In this document: piece by piece, positions 9,037 to 64,000 of the stretch | How positions within the stretch are numbered: position 1 is the stretch's first letter | Layout: each line of letters opens with the position of its first letter | Assembly: GCA_963726255.1 (NCBI GenBank) | Contig: CAVSBL010000002.1 | Span: 32,001-96,000 of the forward strand | Length of the DNA stretch: 64,000 bases | Direction of reading: 5' to 3' | From: Candidatus Bathyarchaeota archaeon | GTDB taxonomy: Archaea; Thermoproteota; Bathyarchaeia; 40CM-2-53-6 | Translations under genes and position numbers: made by a program | The notes under the pieces: model-generated | What the model saw: the letters and a program-made list of their open reading frames with translations, nothing else | Database searches by the model: none | Told to the model about the DNA's origin: nothing

Positions 9037-9822
9037 ATGCGCCGACCGCTCTACCGTCAACTTGTCTCTTACTACGAGCTCATCGAGGGTCGGGACTGGA
9101 AGAGCGAGGTCGGGCTCATCACTTCAATTCTGCGAGATCACGGTTCCAAATCCTTAGTCGACTTAGGATGTGGAACTGGATACCACGTGAGAGCGCTAAC
9201 GAAACTGGGCTTCGAGGCGACGGGAATTGACATCTCGAAAGAGAATATTCAATTCGCCAGAAGAAAAGCCGCTGAGGAGAAAATACACTCGCGCTTTGTC
9301 GTTGGTAGCTATTATGATTATCACCACCATGCGAGGTTTGACGCCGCTGTATGCCTGAACTGGTCTATCCCGGTCAGAAATGACGAGGTGAAACGCTTTC
9401 TTGATAACACGTACGCCCTGCTTCGACCTGGGGGGTTGTTGATTCTTGATTATGAAAGAGTATCGCAGATCGTATGGTCTGATGTCGGAAAGGCAATAGT
9501 ACAGTCATGGGAGCAGAAGAACCAGCTTATTGTAAGAGTCTCCCTTGGCAAGGTAGCCTCAAACGTGTTGTATTCAAGGGACGTTTACATTATCTACCCA
9601 AGGCTTCAGAAACTGATAGTGCCGAGCGAAAGGTCAAGGTACCAAGCCGATGAAAGAAATAGCCGTGTTCAGGTGTATGTCGATAGTTCATGTGTGCGTT
9701 TCTTCTCGATGTCAGAGATCAGAGACTTCGCACGCAGATCTGGGTTCAGGGTCATTAGCAATTTCGTTTTGCCGAGGAATGATTACAAGCGAAACTATGT
9801 TGTCCTAGAGAGGGTCAACTGA
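9037..9822 (+). CDS. class I SAM-dependent methyltransferase
   Basis: LVDLGCGTG, GIDIS, LRPGGLLILD. Confidence 0.9.
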   Translation: MRRPLYRQLVSYYELIEGRDWKSEVGLITSILRDHGSKSLVDLGCGTGYHVRALTKLGFEATGIDISKENIQFARRKAAEEKIHSRFVVGSYYDYHHHARFDAAVCLNWSIPVRNDEVKRFLDNTYALLRPGGLLILDYERVSQIVWSDVGKAIVQSWEQKNQLIVRVSLGKVASNVLYSRDVYIIYPRLQKLIVPSERSRYQADERNSRVQVYVDSSCVRFFSMSEIRDFARRSGFRVISNFVLPRNDYKRNYVVLERVN

Positions 9823-9891: not shown

Positions 9892-10569
9892 CTAATGAAG
9901 GCGTGTTCCGCACCGGTCGCAGAAGTTTGCGCCAGGCTGGTTGGGAGCGCCGCAGTTAGCGCAGGCGACCGGTCCAAAAGGCGTTGGTTGTGGGGAAGCT
10001 TGTGGGTAGTAGGGTTGTTGGACGCTGGGTTGGGGATAAGGTGATTGAGTTGGAGGCACGTACGGCTGACCTACCGGCGGCGGGACCGGCGGGCGCATCA
10101 CAGCATATCCGCCCGTTCGCCCGAAGAATGCCCGAACGTTTCCCGAATTCAAGTAGACTAGTATGATGAGGTAAAACACGATTGTGCACACTATGCTCGC
10201 AAGGCTCTCGTAAAGCCCACTTCCTTCCACGAAACCTACTGTGATAGTCATGATTCCAAAGATGATTCCTAAGATGATCCCGATGATTGCGCCGATCAGG
10301 GTGAGGGTCCAAGCCCAGCCCTTGCCAGTCCAAAGGCCGTAAGCCATTATGAAAGAAAATATCCCCAAGGCGATGACAACAAAATCCAGCAAGAACAACA
10401 GGGTTACGAGAGCCCCACCGATTAGGGCGCCAGCGAGGACTGCCAAGATGAGCAGTACCGCTCCGATAGTTATGTCTCCGAGACCGCTTAGGATTTGTAG
10501 TATGGTGAGAACGGCTACCCCCACAGGCCGTGGGGGACGGGTCATGTTGGCCGCGTACAACGGATTCAT
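9892..10569 (-). CDS. membrane protein with Pro/Gln-rich linker and C-terminal zinc ribbon
   Basis: RPVGVAVLTIL plus 4 hydrophobic segments, GLWTGKGWAW, CANCGAPN...FCDRCG. Confidence 0.85.
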   Translation of the reverse strand: MNPLYAANMTRPPRPVGVAVLTILQILSGLGDITIGAVLLILAVLAGALIGGALVTLLFLLDFVVIALGIFSFIMAYGLWTGKGWAWTLTLIGAIIGIILGIIFGIMTITVGFVEGSGLYESLASIVCTIVFYLIILVYLNSGNVRAFFGRTGGYAVMRPPVPPPVGQPYVPPTQSPYPQPSVQQPYYPQASPQPTPFGPVACANCGAPNQPGANFCDRCGTRLH

Positions 10570-10666
10570 CCTCCTGTCTCAATTGGACTGAAGGGTATTA
10601 TGAAACCTCCGGAAATGCGTTTCCGGCCTTAGCACGCCTACATAGTGCGAGGCTAATAACTTAGAT

Positions 10667-10814
10667 TGGTAGCGGGGGGTGGATGTTCGGGCTTTTCGCC
10701 TTTCGAACCACCGGTTGAGGAGTTTTTTCGACTCAATCTCAGGGTTTCTCGCCAGGATATGAGCCCTCCGCACGGGAAGGTTCTGCGGGTTAAACCTGGC
10801 TACCCCACCCCGCT
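10667..10814 (-). tRNA. initiator tRNA-Met(CAT) with four introns: 29/30 (10766-10782), 37/38 (10746-10757), 47/48 (10714-10735), 59/60 (10684-10701); CCA encoded
   Basis: Spliced 79-nt sequence AGCGGGG TG GGGT AGCCAGGTTTA ACCC G CAGGG CTCATAA CCCTG AGATC GGTGG TTCGAAT CCACC CCCCGCT ACCA; A1-U72 and three G-C pairs (29-31/39-41) mark an initiator; BHB/BHL at every junction. Confidence 0.92.
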
Positions 10815-10910
10815 AGCAGGAAACCAAAATCGGGTCGCGGTCTTTTAGGTTTACTTGTGGTTGTCTGACAGGTGTTGGTGTTGTGTTTTGATTGGTGACC
10901 TTCATTGTTT

Positions 10911-12206
10911 CTAGCTTGCTTGGGGGATTTCGTGCACTGAGCCGATGGGGCTTACCAAGATCAGGAGCACAGGGAGCAGGGAGATTAATCCGCCGATGAT
11001 GATGGTCTGCGTAATTCCAAACTCTGTACCGAAGATTCCTCCGATGAAAGCCCCAACTGGCAGCGCTCCCCAGACTATTGCACGCATGGTGGCGTTCATC
11101 CGGCCCTGAAGCCTGTCGGGCACAATCGCCTGACGAAGGCTGATCTGGGTGATATTGTAGATCGTTATTCCAACCCCAGAGACCATCCAGAGCGCCGCTA
11201 ACACTGGTACTGAGGGACCGTACATAGCAAGGGGGATTGCAAGGAGCCCGAAGCCGACAAGAGATAAGGCGGTGGCAAGGGTAGGAGCGAGCCCGAATCT
11301 CTGCCCGATCTTAGGCGCGATGATTGCACCAATCAAAGAACCCACGCTTCCGATTCCGAGTACGACGCCCGCCAATCCAGGGGACAGTCTCAACTCGTTG
11401 TACATGAAGAGAAAGAACACGGCTGAGAAGATGCTGCTTCCGAGATTCAAAGTTGTGGTCGTCGCTGCGAGGCTTCGGAGCCATGGATTGTGAAAGATTA
11501 CTTCAGCGCCTTCCCTGACCTCCCTAACGAAGTTGCGGTCTGCTTTTGAACTGTATGTGTTTTCAGTCTTCTTGATTGAGAAGATGGCTAGGGCGGCGAA
11601 CAACGTGGTGAGTGCGTCCGCTGTGATAGCTATGGCGGCTCCAGTGAGTTGTATGAGGAAACCGGCCAGCGCAGGGCCAGCGATCTGTGAGGTTGATTCG
11701 CTGGTTGTGAGCTTGGAGTTTCCTTCCACTAAATTCTCCCTATCAACCAGCGTTGGTAGATAGGACTGGTATGCGACTTCGAAAAACACAGTGGATATTC
11801 CCATAACCGCGGCAACGGCGAACAAATGGTAGAGGTTGAGTTTGCCTAGGAGGAACGCGATTGGAATTGTTCCAAGGGTGATGACCTGTACAATATTCGC
11901 CAGAACCATCATTGGGCGCCGCGGCCACCTGTCACCCATCACACCCACGAAGACCCCTAGAATCGGAAAGGCAAGGTAGCCCAAGGCGTTTAGAACTCCA
12001 ATATCGAAAGCTCCAGCCTTTAGAGCGAAAATGGCGATAGTCGGCAACGCCAAGTAGGTTATTTGACCTCCAAACCACTCGACAGTTTCGCCAACCCATA
12101 AACGCATGAAATCCCTATGGTGCCACAGCCGTCCTGACAAAGCAAACTTCAAACTAGCATCCTCTTCCATCCCCCAGGACGGTCGCTCTTTTGCCGTGAC
12201 GAACAC
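10911..12206 (-). CDS. MFS transporter
   Basis: DFMRLWVGETV, GVMGDRWPRR, PDRLQGRMNA; about 12 hydrophobic segments. Confidence 0.92.
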   Translation of the reverse strand: MFVTAKERPSWGMEEDASLKFALSGRLWHHRDFMRLWVGETVEWFGGQITYLALPTIAIFALKAGAFDIGVLNALGYLAFPILGVFVGVMGDRWPRRPMMVLANIVQVITLGTIPIAFLLGKLNLYHLFAVAAVMGISTVFFEVAYQSYLPTLVDRENLVEGNSKLTTSESTSQIAGPALAGFLIQLTGAAIAITADALTTLFAALAIFSIKKTENTYSSKADRNFVREVREGAEVIFHNPWLRSLAATTTTLNLGSSIFSAVFFLFMYNELRLSPGLAGVVLGIGSVGSLIGAIIAPKIGQRFGLAPTLATALSLVGFGLLAIPLAMYGPSVPVLAALWMVSGVGITIYNITQISLRQAIVPDRLQGRMNATMRAIVWGALPVGAFIGGIFGTEFGITQTIIIGGLISLLPVLLILVSPIGSVHEIPQAS

Positions 12207-54915: not shown

Positions 54916-55224
54916 TGGGTCGACGTGTTGGCCGTAACCCACCTTCTGTTTTAGGCGACATTCATCTAGTCGGGATACCCGCGCCTCAGGCGGTTTTCAC
55001 GGGCGCCTATTATCCCTTTCACAGCGTGTGTAGGCATTTCACCCTTACCGCCAGCCTCCTCAACGCAAGCGCATCATAGTCGTCGGCTGGTGGAGGTTTT
55101 TTTCTGCGCCTTAACCCAACCTCTCGGCTGGCACTTCACAGTGCCACGCTTCCGCCATGTGGGTGGAGTTTCCTCAAGCCCAATACGCATAGGGCCCGGA
55201 GTCGCTCACCAACTCGCCAACCCA
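54916..55224 (-). ncRNA. rnpB: archaeal RNase P RNA
   Basis: On the minus strand, GAGGAAACTCCACCC (CR-I) and AAACAGAAGGTGGGTTA (CR-V) form P4; terminal P1 TGGGTTGGCG/CGTCGACCCA. Confidence 0.92.
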
Positions 55225-59338: not shown

Positions 59339-60887
<1,549 letters not shown>

Positions 60888-63120
60888 TAGTAAATTCGAA
60901 TGGACTGGAAGACAAATGAGTTGTGACTGCGAGCCAAGATGCGATAATGCAGCTTCCGAGCTAACATTCGGAAGCGAAGGGTATAGTGATCATTCACTCC
61001 GAAACGGATGATCATGATGAACACCGTGCATAGGCCTCAACGTTAGACGAGTGTGGGTTCCATAGTAAGTTCGGCATGATAAGCCACCTGAAGGATGGCT
61101 GGGCTTGGGCACTGAAGAAGGGCGTGGCAAGCTGCGATATGCTCCGGGTAGCCGCATGCAGGCTTCGATCCGGAGATACCCGAATAGGACTTCCAGCCGC
61201 GGGTGAAACCTGCGGCGCTCCGAAAAGGAGCGGGAACCTCCCGAACGGAAGCATCCAAGTAGGGAGAGGAACAGAAATCAATTGAGATTCCCCCAGTAGC
61301 GGCGAGCGAAAAGGGAACAGCTCAAACTGAACCTGCATGGGAAACTATGCGGGAATGTGGGGTTATAGGGCCCGACCGCGCCCTCGCTCGAGAAGTTGAA
61401 GTGGCCTGGAACGGCCCACCGTAGAGGGTGAAAGTCCCGTAAACATAACCGAGCAAGGTTTGGGTTGGTGTCCCTGAGTACTACGCCCCGGATTGGGCGT
61501 AGAAATTTGGGAGGAAGCAACTTCCAAAGCTAAACATGTCCCAAGACCGATAGCGCACTAGTACCGTGAGGGAAAGCTGAAAAGTACCCCGGAAGGGGGG
61601 CGAAAAGTGCCTGAAATCAGGTGGTAACAGTTGTGCACAGCCCGAAAGGGTAGATCCCCTCCGAAGGAAACCGCGGCAACGCGGCTGTACGCAAGAGGGG
61701 GGACCAGGGTTGTGCGTTCCGTTTTGTACCACGGGCCGGGGAGTTCATCTTCGTGGTGAGGCTAAGAGTGTGATGCTCGAAGCCGTAGGGAAACCAACAA
61801 GTTCGCAACGTCGCAAGACGCGAGGAACGAGATCTGAAAGGGTCTGAAATCACGGGGATGACACTAGAAACCGAGTGATCTAGCCTTGGGCAGGGCGAAG
61901 CCGGGCGAAAGCCCGGTGGAGGCCCGCATGGGTGATGACGTGCAAATCTCTCCGTTGACCTGGGGCTAGGAGTAAAAGGCCAATCTAACTCGGTGATAGC
62001 TAGTTCCCGCCGAAATATCTCTAAGGATAGTCTGGCCGGAGGTTGCCAGCGGGGTAGAGTACTGATTGAAAAACAAGGACTCGAAAGGGTCCACTTTTCG
62101 TTCAAACTCCGAATTCGCTGGCGCCGTAGAAGGCTGGAAACGGATGTGGGGGGTAAGCTCCCATGTCGCGAGGGGAACAACCCAGACTAGGGTTAAGGTC
62201 CCCAAATCCTGGCTAAGTGTAGAAATAGAAAGCGGTCCTCAACCACAGACAGCTGGAAGGTAGGCTTAGAAGCAGCCATCCTCCAAGCAGTGCGTAACAG
62301 CTGACCAGCCGAGGTTGGGGGCGCCGAAAACGAACGGGGCTAAGCCAGGTACCGTTACCCTAGAACACGATGCATAATCGTGTTGGTAGGCGGGCGTTGT
62401 GGCTGGGCGGAAGCTGGGTTTTGAGATCCAGTGGACCGGCCACAAGTGTAGATCCCGGTGGTAGTAACAGCCATAGAGGGGTGAGAATCCCCTCCGTCGA
62501 AGGGGCAAGGGTTCCCCGGCAATGCGTCGTCAGCCGGGGGTAAGTCGGCCCTAAGGCAACCCTTAACCGGATAAGCCGAAAGGGAAACCGGTTAAAATTC
62601 CGGTACCACGGAGGTACACGCGGCAACGCAAGTCCGCAATCTGACGCTTGGGGATAAGTTGAGTGGGGCCGTCGCCCCATTTAACCCGTCAAGGCCGGGA
62701 AGTACCATAATGGTGAGAACCGGCCGAAGCGGGAAATAGCCGCCCGTCTTAGGGTGGTTCAGCCGAGTCCTCGAGCCAATGAAAAGGAGCACGGAATGAA
62801 TCCTCCGTGACCGTACCTAAATCCGACACAGGTGCCCCTAGGTGAGAAGCCTTAGACGTATCGGGTGGAACTTAGGCGAGGGAACTCGGCAAATTAGCCC
62901 CGTAACTTCGGAAAAAGGGGTGCCTGACGTTTTGGCGCAAGCTGGAACGCCAGGTCGCAGTGACTCGGGAGAAGCGACTGTTTACTAAAAACATAGGGAA
63001 CCGCCAGCCCGAAAGGGTGTGAACGGTTCCTGAGTCCTGGCCAGTGGCGGTACCTGAAACTCGGGTTCAACCAAGCTAAGGGCCGCTAAACGCCGGGAGT
63101 AACTCTGACTCTCTTAAGGT

Positions 63121-63822
63121 AAACAGTGGTTTGCCTTAACCAAATCCGGCTATATGCTGGAAGGTCTGGCGAATGTCACACTACTCCAATCGAACCTCCA
63201 AGAAACATAAGCAACCTTGGACTACGGTTGAAGTGAAAAAGTGTTGACTGCAGATAATCAGCAGGAAAGGCTGGATCCGCGATGGGTCACGGGATTCGTC
63301 GACGGCGAAGGATGCTTCCATATCTCCATAAACAAGCAACCAAAGATGAGCATGGGATGGCAAGTATTACCAGAATTTCGAATAGTGCAACACAAACGTG
63401 ACGAAGCACTTCTCAAGGAACTTCAACGATTCTTCAAAGCTGGGAAAGTGGTTGTGAATCACGACCAGCGAAAAGAACTCAGAATACGAAAATTGAATGA
63501 ACTGACCAACGTGATTGCTCTCTTCGAAAAATATCCACTAAGGACCAAGAAAAGCGAAGATTTCGAAGTTTTCAGACAAGTCTTGCGCGCAATGAAGCAA
63601 CGCGAACATTTGACTCGTGAAGGACTCGACAGGATAGCTAACCTTTGCTGGAAGATGAATCGAAAAGTGAAGCCGCGGTATCTAGAATCCTCAGAGACTC
63701 TACGCCGGAAATCGCTGAAGTGCGATTAAGATATAGTCCGACCCCTGTAGCGATGCAGGGAGGTTTGCGATGTGCAAACCCGCCTACAATATTTCTGTTA
63801 GGTCACGGAAGTAACAGATGTG
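63121..63822 (+). mobile_element. group I intron (IB-like) at 23S position about 1931
   Basis: 5' exon ends in U with P1 TTAAGGT/GCCTTAA; P ATGCTGGAA, Q AATCAGCAGG (63256-63265), R TCAGAGACT (63691-63699), S AAGATATAGTCC (63728-63739); P3 CCGGC/GCCGG; terminal G at 63822; P10 TGGTT/AGCCA. Confidence 0.95.
63241..63729 (+). CDS. single-motif LAGLIDADG homing endonuclease
   Basis: WVTGFVDGEGCFHISI, FRIVQHKRD, KYPLRTKK...FEVF, HLTREGL. Confidence 0.93.
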   Translation: MLTADNQQERLDPRWVTGFVDGEGCFHISINKQPKMSMGWQVLPEFRIVQHKRDEALLKELQRFFKAGKVVVNHDQRKELRIRKLNELTNVIALFEKYPLRTKKSEDFEVFRQVLRAMKQREHLTREGLDRIANLCWKMNRKVKPRYLESSETLRRKSLKCD

Positions 63823-64000
63823 AGCCAAATGCCTTGTCGGGTAAGTTCCGACGTGCATGAATGGATCAACGACTTCTCCGCTGTCCCCGCCTAGGGCCCG
63901 GTGAACCCACAACCTGGACGAACAGTCCAAGGTCTTCCAGCGGGGCGAGAAGTCCCCGTGGAGTTTTACTGCAACCTGTCGCTGGGATGTGATTGCGGGT

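Follow-up and report, generated by a model that had tools for sequence, protein, structure and literature searches.

Archaeal tRNA genes are credited with three introns at most in a 2014 review (PMC4033280), and the paper presenting tRNAscan-SE 2.0 likewise speaks of up to three introns per gene, naming Pyrobaculum calidifontis as the richest genome, with 71 introns in 46 genes (PMC8450103, published in 2021). As these two sources describe them, the Thermoproteales combine multi-intron tRNAs with a broad-specificity splicing endonuclease, and many of their tRNA genes are missed by simple scanners (PMC4033280; PMC8450103). Here we describe an initiator tRNA-Met (iMet) gene that is apparently interrupted by four introns and lies on the minus strand, between positions 10,667 and 10,814, of a 64,000-nucleotide stretch of DNA from a Candidatus Bathyarchaeota archaeon (Archaea; Thermoproteota; Bathyarchaeia; 40CM-2-53-6; assembly GCA_963726255.1, contig CAVSBL010000002.1). 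This whole stretch, called the window below, corresponds to G000:C2:32001-96000, where G000 is the genome under study; other G codes denote genomes of relatives, and L codes denote loci fetched from them. Like the Thermoproteales P. calidifontis and Thermofilum pendens, this archaeon has multi-intron tRNA genes that simple scanners miss. It differs from them in its lineage and in the presence of four introns in one gene, against a stated maximum of three. Moreover, many introns of the Thermoproteales belong to families shared between tRNA types, whereas none were found here at 80% identity or more among 61 introns predicted in 27 tRNA genes (0/61).

Heavily interrupted tRNA genes are also reported from Asgard archaea, where interruption affects the majority of tRNA genes and more than half carry multiple introns (PMC11291895, 2024). 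A preprint of October 2026 gives 2.2 intervening sequences per Asgard gene and up to five in one gene, and states that a standard annotator misses many of these genes and that cross-gene intron families are almost lacking (10.64898/2026.10.13.758758). The genome under study resembles this picture, with 2.2 introns per gene in a partial census and no intron families, but it belongs to a separate phylum (Bathyarchaeia, on the side of the Thaumarchaeota, Aigarchaeota, Crenarchaeota and Korarchaeota, TACK). A eukaryotic parallel is provided by the red alga Cyanidioschyzon merolae, whose nuclear tRNAs are reported to contain at most three bulge-helix-bulge (BHB) introns, located in the D-arm, at 37/38 and in the T-loop, the non-canonical ones leaving before the 37/38 intron as judged by reverse transcription PCR (PMC3728597). 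The same order, with the 37/38 intron last, is predicted for the locus described here. Finally, the iMet gene of T. pendens is described as permuted and in need of BHB processing (PMC4090602); in both cases an essential initiator tRNA is rearranged and BHB-dependent, the gene being circularly permuted there and colinear with four introns here.

A preliminary description of the locus, made from the nucleotide sequence, had given three introns as the known limit, in agreement with the wording of the 2014 and 2021 papers, and had suggested that four might go beyond described cases. Four introns would indeed extend the BHB intron count per tRNA gene beyond the 'maximum of three' of those papers (PMC4033280; PMC8450103); with up to five in one gene according to the Asgard preprint, the record for intron number is overtaken (10.64898/2026.10.13.758758). 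Our literature search returned no report of a four-intron archaeal tRNA and nothing relevant on tRNA introns of Bathyarchaeia, those of initiator tRNAs and noncanonical ones included, and tRNA introns of Bathyarchaeia are likewise absent from the text of the Asgard preprint, supplements and their per-gene tables lying outside the coverage of the search.

The iMet locus and its spliced product

In-silico splicing of the minus strand of the window from position 10,814 down to 10,667 takes out inserts of 17, 12, 22 and 18 nt and leaves a 79-nt tRNA that includes an encoded CCA. The inserts are located at 29/30, 37/38, 47/48 and 59/60 in Sprinzl numbering, and in the numbering of the precursor the exons occupy nucleotides 1-32, 50-57, 70-79, 102-113 and 132-148. 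The features are as follows (window coordinates, all on the minus strand):

Exon 1, 10783..10814 (-): tRNA positions 1-29, with the 5' strand of the acceptor stem, the D-arm, position 26 and positions 27-29
Intron 1, 10766..10782 (-): 17 nt at 29/30, relaxed BHB
Exon 2, 10758..10765 (-): positions 30-37, GG + CUCAUA, carrying the CAU anticodon
Intron 2, 10746..10757 (-): 12 nt at the canonical 37/38 site, similar to a bulge-helix-loop (BHL) motif
Exon 3, 10736..10745 (-): positions 38-47
Intron 3, 10714..10735 (-): 22 nt at 47/48, BHB of the full hBHBh' form (defined below)
Exon 4, 10702..10713 (-): positions 48-59, with the 5' strand of the T-stem and UUCGAA
Intron 4, 10684..10701 (-): 18 nt at 59/60 in the T-loop, hBHBh'
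Exon 5, 10667..10683 (-): positions 60-72, discriminator A73 (10670) and genome-encoded CCA (10667-10669)

The spliced sequence is recognised as tRNA-Met(CAT) by ARAGORN, and every stem is fully paired in the layout AGCGGGG / UG / GGGU-11 nt loop-ACCC / G / CAGGG-CUCAUAA-CCCUG / AGAUC / GGUGG-UUCGAAU-CCACC / CCCCGCU / A. Archaeal initiator tRNAs are marked by an A1:U72 end pair and by three G:C pairs at 29-31:39-41. The spliced product carries A1:U72 and G29-31:C39-41 together with the CAU anticodon, U8, G18G19 and UUCGAAU. The 79-nt product and the four insert sites of the preliminary description were thus recovered by re-reading and by ARAGORN, as were its A1-U72 pair, its GGG/CCC anticodon stem and its CAT anticodon.

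The unspliced gene is invisible to standard tools, as had been anticipated. ARAGORN called no tRNA anywhere in the window, nor in the 148-nt stretch with or without the intron option. Rfam models returned only rRNAs and the RNase P RNA from the window; around the locus, relaxing the threshold to E<=10 brought up no tRNA-like match either. Run genome-wide with the same limit, the Rfam tRNA model RF00005 gave 32 matches, all outside the iMet locus; it is the unspliced sequence that was scored by this model, for which the gathering threshold is 29 bits. Two one-intron orthologs (L023, L024), interrupted by the canonical intron only, reach about 52 bits on the same model. We also used an intron-tolerant tRNA scan that starts from a T-loop anchor, requires acceptor-stem pairing and admits candidate introns only at BHB-like junctions. 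It scored 11.0 at the iMet locus, where the four introns are the sole mismatch-free solution, while the best score in a block-shuffled genome control (1.2 Mb x 2 strands) was -0.5.

Search for a second initiator tRNA gene

The preliminary description had asked whether the genome holds any other iMet gene, and none was found by self-BLAST or by pattern searches. When the locus was compared with its own genome by BLAST, the matches elsewhere were chance ones of 17-19 nt only; the uninterrupted anticodon arm GGGCTCATAACCC has no occurrence in the genome, and the 3' end CCCCGCTACCA occurs once, at the iMet locus itself. The other CAT tRNA resolved by the scan (G000:C2:144266-144372, two predicted introns) is of elongator type, because it has a G1:C72 pair and a CCAGA/UCUGG anticodon stem. 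In the congener G015, whose genome is 100% complete in three contigs, the sole match above chance is likewise a four-intron gene.

The locus in related genomes

The locus was compared by BLAST with 40 sampled relatives, and the spliced sequence was realigned to each locus found by gap-tolerant spliced alignment, L025 and L027 being parsed by semi-global alignment. This gave 31 distinct iMet loci from G000 and 26 relatives (27 genomes). Their exons are strikingly constant: identity to the mature sequence of the window is 76/76 in 21 loci, 75/76 in four, 72/76 in three and 71/76 in two. In the 29 parsed loci whose acceptor stem and D-arm are free of introns, exon 1 is unbroken, with 100% identity throughout; the discriminator is directly followed by CCA in 26 of 29 distinct loci. 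The introns behave quite differently. Four are present in 19 of the 31 loci, three in seven, two in three and one in two, no locus is uninterrupted, and seven intron positions are used in all.

For each of the four introns of the window there are at least four among the 31 loci in which it is cleanly missing at the predicted join, with flanking exons that are identical or nearly so. Intron 1 is missing exactly at the join in L017-L024, L026 and others; intron 2 in L016, L019, L022 and L026, with identical exons; intron 3 in the congeners G002 and G006 (L014, L015) and in L023/L024; and intron 4 in L020, L021, L023 and L024. Several of the reduced or altered intron sets are the following:

L022: introns at 47/48 and 59/60
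L020, L021: introns at 37/38 and 47/48
L023, L024: intron at 37/38 only
L016: introns at 29/30, 47/48 and 59/60
L026: introns at 15/16, 47/48 and 59/60

Among the 22 congeners, the same four introns were found in 12, G002 and G006 lack the 47/48 intron only, and the other eight gave no BLAST match. An alignment of the four-intron set (alignment A1; 14 congener rows, 76 exon columns, 74 intron columns) brings out the contrast between the two kinds of sequence, since none of the 76 exon columns varies while 39 of the 74 intron columns do (11/17 in intron 1, 2/12 in intron 2, 11/22 in intron 3 and 15/23 in intron 4). Relative to G000, the introns go down to an identity of 0.70, with exons remaining at 76/76. 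Invariant exons beside diverging introns form the signature of a functional gene from which the inserts are removed.

Exons identical at 76/76 positions also occur in other families, where they bear different introns, and three distinct four-intron configurations of the iMet gene are found across families. Besides that of the window, these are:

Family f7 (L025:1396-1544 (+), L027:1396-1544 (+)): exons 76/76, introns at 4/5, ~21/22, 37/38 and 59/60
Families f5 and f10 (L028:1475-1631 (+), L029, L030): exons 72/76, introns at 4/5, ~20-22, 37/38 and 47/48

The acceptor-stem intron at 4/5 in the families of L025 and L027-L030 forms a good BHB once the upstream leader is included; its central helix is GUAG:CUAC (or CUGC, CUAU, CUGU) and its exonic helix has 4-5 bp, both drawing on the 5' leader, the exonic one on its final bases.

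We also scanned prokaryotes, each species represented by one genome, for a pattern with introns 1 and 2 between exons of the window type and retrieved 14 stretches, of which 12 are filed under metagenome-assembled genomes (MAGs) of Bathyarchaeia/Bathyarchaeota, one under 'archaeon' and one under a bacterium (L040). Thirteen duplicate loci already obtained; the fourteenth, L042, is a second copy in G013, and its row in alignment A1 shows no difference in any of the 76 exon columns. The G013 MAG thus contains two four-intron iMet copies (L009, L042) on separate contigs, with identical exons and different introns, which could reflect a duplicated gene or a bin (contamination 7%) that mixes two strains. 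We also would like to mention that the four-intron gene of L040, filed as a bacterial MAG, is identical to that of the congener G022 (L010); L040 is probably a mis-binned archaeal contig.

Junction motifs and folding of the precursor

Each junction was modelled as two 3-nt bulges separated by a 4-bp central helix, with cleavage after the second base of each bulge. The helices and bulges given in the preliminary description (CCGC/GCGG, CUCA/CGAG with one mismatch, UGAG/CUCA and UUCG/CGAA) are all present as it stated them:

Intron 1, 29/30: central helix CCGC:GCGG, 4/4 pairs; exonic helix 1 bp; inner helix 2 bp
Intron 2, 37/38: central helix CUCA:CGAG, 3/4 pairs with an A.C mismatch; exonic helix formed by the anticodon stem, 4 bp before and 5 bp after removal of intron 1; inner helix 1 bp
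Intron 3, 47/48: central helix UGAG:CUCA, 4/4 pairs; exonic helix 2 bp; inner helix 4 bp
Intron 4, 59/60: central helix UUCG:CGAA, 4/4 pairs; exonic helix formed by the T-stem, 5 bp; inner helix 3 bp

The 3-nt bulges and 4-bp helix are therefore complete in introns 1, 3 and 4, and intron 2 has them in relaxed form only (3/4 pairs). The stricter hBHBh' motif has been defined by at least two Watson-Crick pairs in each flanking helix (PMC7714728); introns 3 (2 and 4 bp) and 4 (5 and 3 bp) have this form, whereas intron 1 (1 and 2 bp) and intron 2 fall short of it, and on the sequence these two are relaxed or BHL-type motifs. In the same vein, the BHB motif scores are 11 for introns 1 and 2, 14 for intron 3 and 16 for intron 4, and the motifs of introns 3 and 4 are strong.

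Across the related loci the central helix is fully paired (4/4) in 17 of 17 introns at 29/30, in 25 of 25 at 47/48 and in 21 of 22 at 59/60. The inner helix of the 47/48 intron reaches at least 4 bp in 23 of 25 loci, and the inner helices of the 47/48 and 59/60 introns stay paired despite sequences that differ between families, with compensatory changes at two inner-helix pairs of the 59/60 intron. When intron sequences are shuffled, the observed motif score is matched in 0-0.5% of trials for most loci at 29/30, 47/48 and 59/60, single loci reaching 4.5% (29/30) and 5.5% (59/60); at 29/30 the figure is at most 0.5% for 16 of 17 loci. Within the genus, 96.5% of the cells of alignment A1 expected to pair do so, versus 41-49% when the partners are slid by 1-3 columns, and four pairs have changed on both sides.

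Before any splicing, the RNA has a minimum free energy (MFE) fold (-55 kcal/mol, z = -2.2) in which the BHBs of introns 3 and 4 are both fully formed, and the pairing probability of their central helices in the primary transcript is 0.64 for intron 3 and 0.86 for intron 4. In the same fold, CCUGGC within intron 2 (10746-10757) is paired with the complementary GCCAGG of the D-loop (10795-10800); this complementarity could be an aid to folding or recognition, or chance.

Weight of the evidence

We consider that the locus is a functional initiator tRNA-Met gene, apparently the only one of the genome, with four introns that are most likely cut by the splicing endonuclease EndA, and assign this reading a probability of roughly 0.92; transcription, cut sites, splicing order and the subunit make-up of EndA are parts of it that we infer. 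A number of observations weigh against it. The MAG is 98.5% complete, in five contigs, with 9.3% contamination, and the genome scan resolved about 27 of about 46 expected tRNA genes. As the scan is incomplete, the absence of a second iMet gene rests mainly on the BLAST and pattern searches. A single metatranscriptome run, which contained 0.11 of the sampled words, yielded no contig on positions 10300-11200 of the window and is uninformative on expression either way. The relaxed BHB criterion is permissive, allowing 117 candidate introns within the 148-nt stretch, and for this reason the motifs of introns 1 and 2 are weak evidence when taken alone. The motif of the 37/38 intron is weak, shuffled sequences reaching its score in 1-13% of trials. 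In the folding calculations the central helix of intron 1 has a pairing probability of just 0.18, and that of intron 2 has 0.0 at every stage, including after removal of the other three introns. The covariation seen in the genus is shallow: the observed count of doubly changed pairs was reached in 62 of 500 shuffles.

The relatives contribute a further point of this kind, as the eight congeners with no BLAST match (8/22; G003, G005, G008, G009, G010, G016, G017 and G020) have no iMet copy by this search at all. In five of them (G017, G016, G010, G003, G020), the 5' 15-mer, the 3' 14-mer and the uninterrupted anticodon arm (one mismatch allowed) were found in none (0/5 each). The methyltransferase gene that neighbours the locus was found in one of these five (G003), with no iMet gene around it. 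For the other four, it is plausible that the region is missing from the assembly; alternatively, the gene may be differently organised. Weak BLAST leads in congeners (L114-L116) were examined and are not iMet.

The incomplete, five-contig MAG, the lack of RNA reads in the single run and the blindness of standard models could also be accommodated if the locus were a decaying tRNA pseudogene with insertions, the working initiator tRNA being encoded at another site (e.g., in an unassembled part of the genome). We hold this to be very improbable: a decaying copy is at odds with exons that do not vary in any column across 14 congener sequences while more than half of the intron columns do, with the full exon identity in other families that bear different introns, and with a BHB or BHL junction at every insert, and the BLAST and pattern searches found no other iMet-like sequence in this genome, nor did BLAST find one in G015. 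The contamination of the MAG would similarly suit an assembly or binning artefact. The same architecture recurs in 12 separately assembled congener genomes and in the 14 public stretches from the independent pattern scan, and through this recurrence across assemblies the artefact is effectively refuted. A permuted or split gene was considered as well and is ruled out, the gene being colinear and complete.

The uncertainty about intron 2 can be given a more specific form, in which only the inserts at 29/30, 47/48 and 59/60 are EndA introns and the 37/38 insert is removed by another kind of recognition (e.g., guided by the 6-bp pairing with the D-loop) or at other cut sites. Its three of four central pairs, its near absence of an inner helix, its zero motif probability and the D-loop pairing in the MFE fold would all fit, as would its unusual conservation (two of 12 columns varying, versus 11/17, 11/22 and 15/23 in the others). 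Yet 37/38 is the canonical EndA site, four relatives lack an insert exactly at this join, and the 37/38 introns of relatives are longer (15-20 nt) and have good motifs, up to (4,5,2) or (3,5,5). By a rough estimate, chance alone would give a 12-nt intron a 6-bp match to a 76-nt tRNA in about 0.1 of cases, and broad-specificity enzymes of the (alpha-beta)2 type are reported to cut relaxed motifs (PMC4033280; PMC5829648). We thus regard a separate mode of removal for intron 2 as unlikely and retain the reading with four EndA introns, in which the recognition of a 12-nt intron with a weak motif is the least secure step.

A possible processing pathway

The genome encodes two proteins of the EndA family, of 188 and 187 amino acids, each with the PF01974 and PF02778 domains and 28% identical to each other. 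The 188-residue protein scores 90.9 bits on TIGR00324 (endA equivalog; cut-off 59.6), whereas its 187-residue paralog is below this cut-off and gives only weak matches to beta-subunit models (31.7 bits versus a cut-off of 157). The presence of two divergent paralogs suggests a heterotetrameric enzyme, and EndA of this archaeon is, judging from these proteins, probably an (alpha-beta)2 heterotetramer, a form for which cleavage of relaxed, non-canonical motifs has been reported (PMC4033280; PMC5829648). The ligase RtcB is encoded as well (E=8.5e-172).

With these enzymes, processing would start from a precursor transcript that comprises about 148 nt and a leader, and EndA, as the most likely enzyme, would cut within the 3-nt bulges of the BHB at each junction. 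RtcB would then ligate the exons and RNase P, whose RNA gene is located in the window, would trim the leader; excision of all four introns would yield the 76-nt tRNA with its genome-encoded CCA. Introns 3 and 4, with their full hBHBh' motifs, should form these structures in the primary transcript. Introns 4, 3 and 1 are predicted to leave first and the 37/38 intron 2 last. Intron 2 would probably be the last because its exonic helix is the anticodon stem, which intron 1 splits and which has to compete with the central helix of intron 3 for its 3' strand (positions 42-43).

An A-rich box, CTAAAAGA (10841..10848 (-)), read from the sequence at -34 to -27 from the mature 5' end, is a possible archaeal TATA-like promoter element. 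A-rich boxes like CTAAAAGA are found at equal distance in L002-L005 and L010, and a TTATCTA-like box lies farther upstream in other congeners.

tRNA introns across the genome

Heavy interruption is typical of the tRNA genes of this lineage. In the genome under study, 24 tRNA genes from the scan exceed the best score of the shuffled control and are also recognised by ARAGORN once spliced in silico. These contain 53 predicted introns, or 2.2 per gene: none in one gene, one in six, two in eight, three in five and four in four. Inclusion of three lower-scoring Leu genes brings the census to 27 genes and 61 introns. It is a partial census, with about 15-19 expected tRNA genes outside it and with intron calls cross-checked in relatives for the four-intron genes only. 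A relaxed re-scan around 20 tRNA-like matches produced noise-level parses only. The Rfam tRNA model passes just 17 tRNA genes in this 98.5%-complete genome; tRNA counts, which serve as a quality criterion for MAGs, would therefore understate the quality of such genomes.

Besides iMet, three genes have four introns:

tRNA-Lys(UUU), G000:C2:1440518-1440704 (-): four predicted BHB introns
tRNA-Pro(GGG), G000:C2:979124-979301 (-): four predicted BHB introns
tRNA-Glu(CUC), G000:C2:1095564-1095710 (-): four predicted BHB introns

The Lys(UUU) gene has four introns in 11 of 20 congener loci and lacks the first in the remaining nine, with exon identities of 72-74/74. Pro(GGG) has at least four introns in all 17 congener loci and three in two genera of the same family. 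The same four introns of Glu(CUC) are found in 13 of 19 congener loci, three in four loci and two in two (for L135 the parse is poor, with 59/75 exon identity). Among relatives with near-identical exons the number of introns ranges from 1 to 4 for Pro and from 2 to 4 for Lys and for Glu, and the exon joins of the three genes are confirmed by these near-identical exons with fewer introns.

At a lower threshold of 70% identity, 15 of the 61 introns show similarity to an intron of another gene, versus 4-8 in five shuffles. A further observation concerns the region G000:C2 ~459500-486100 (+), where matches to tRNA T-arms or 3' ends alone occur at 459576, 464947, 467519, 471313-471446 and 486055, all within 27 kb; one of them is a stretch that shares 87% identity with the greater part of the Lys(UUU) gene and its introns. 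These could be further interrupted tRNA genes, a cluster of paralogs, or fragments of tRNAs left behind by integrated elements.

Implications

The iMet gene is mechanistically an ordinary, if extreme, case of BHB introns and is not unique within its own genome. Three aspects appear to be new: the lineage, a sole initiator tRNA that depends on four splicing events, and the range of intron configurations that one invariant tRNA has across the order. If the gene works as proposed, translation initiation would hinge on eight precise cuts and four ligations in one 148-nt transcript, while automatic annotation would report no initiator tRNA for such a genome. The uncultured and globally abundant Bathyarchaeia would join the few lineages whose tRNA genes are massively interrupted. 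We put forward, as a tentative view held with somewhat less than even confidence, that Bathyarchaeia of this order are a third, undescribed hot spot of tRNA-intron proliferation, independent of the Thermoproteales and of the Asgard archaea. Since introns are present or absent between congeneric species, the clade would be a natural time series of tRNA-intron gain and loss, and it would offer dated material for the question of how tRNA introns arrive. In this tentative view, the four splicing events of the sole initiator tRNA would have to follow one another in an obligatory order.

Genomic surroundings

The iMet locus is intergenic, with a zinc-ribbon protein gene on one side and a major facilitator superfamily (MFS) transporter gene on the other, the two lying 340 nt apart, and no open reading frame of at least 70 amino acids overlaps it. 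The methyltransferase gene already mentioned (9037-9822 of the window) is nearby, and this synteny is frequent in congeners. No tRNA was detected by ARAGORN or Rfam in the 16S-23S spacer (about 180 nt) of the rRNA operon of the window, which comprises the 16S gene at 59340-60887 (+) and the 23S gene at 61067-64000 (+), the latter extending past the end of the window. The RNase P RNA encoded in the window (54923-55217 (-)) is a full-length archaeal one.

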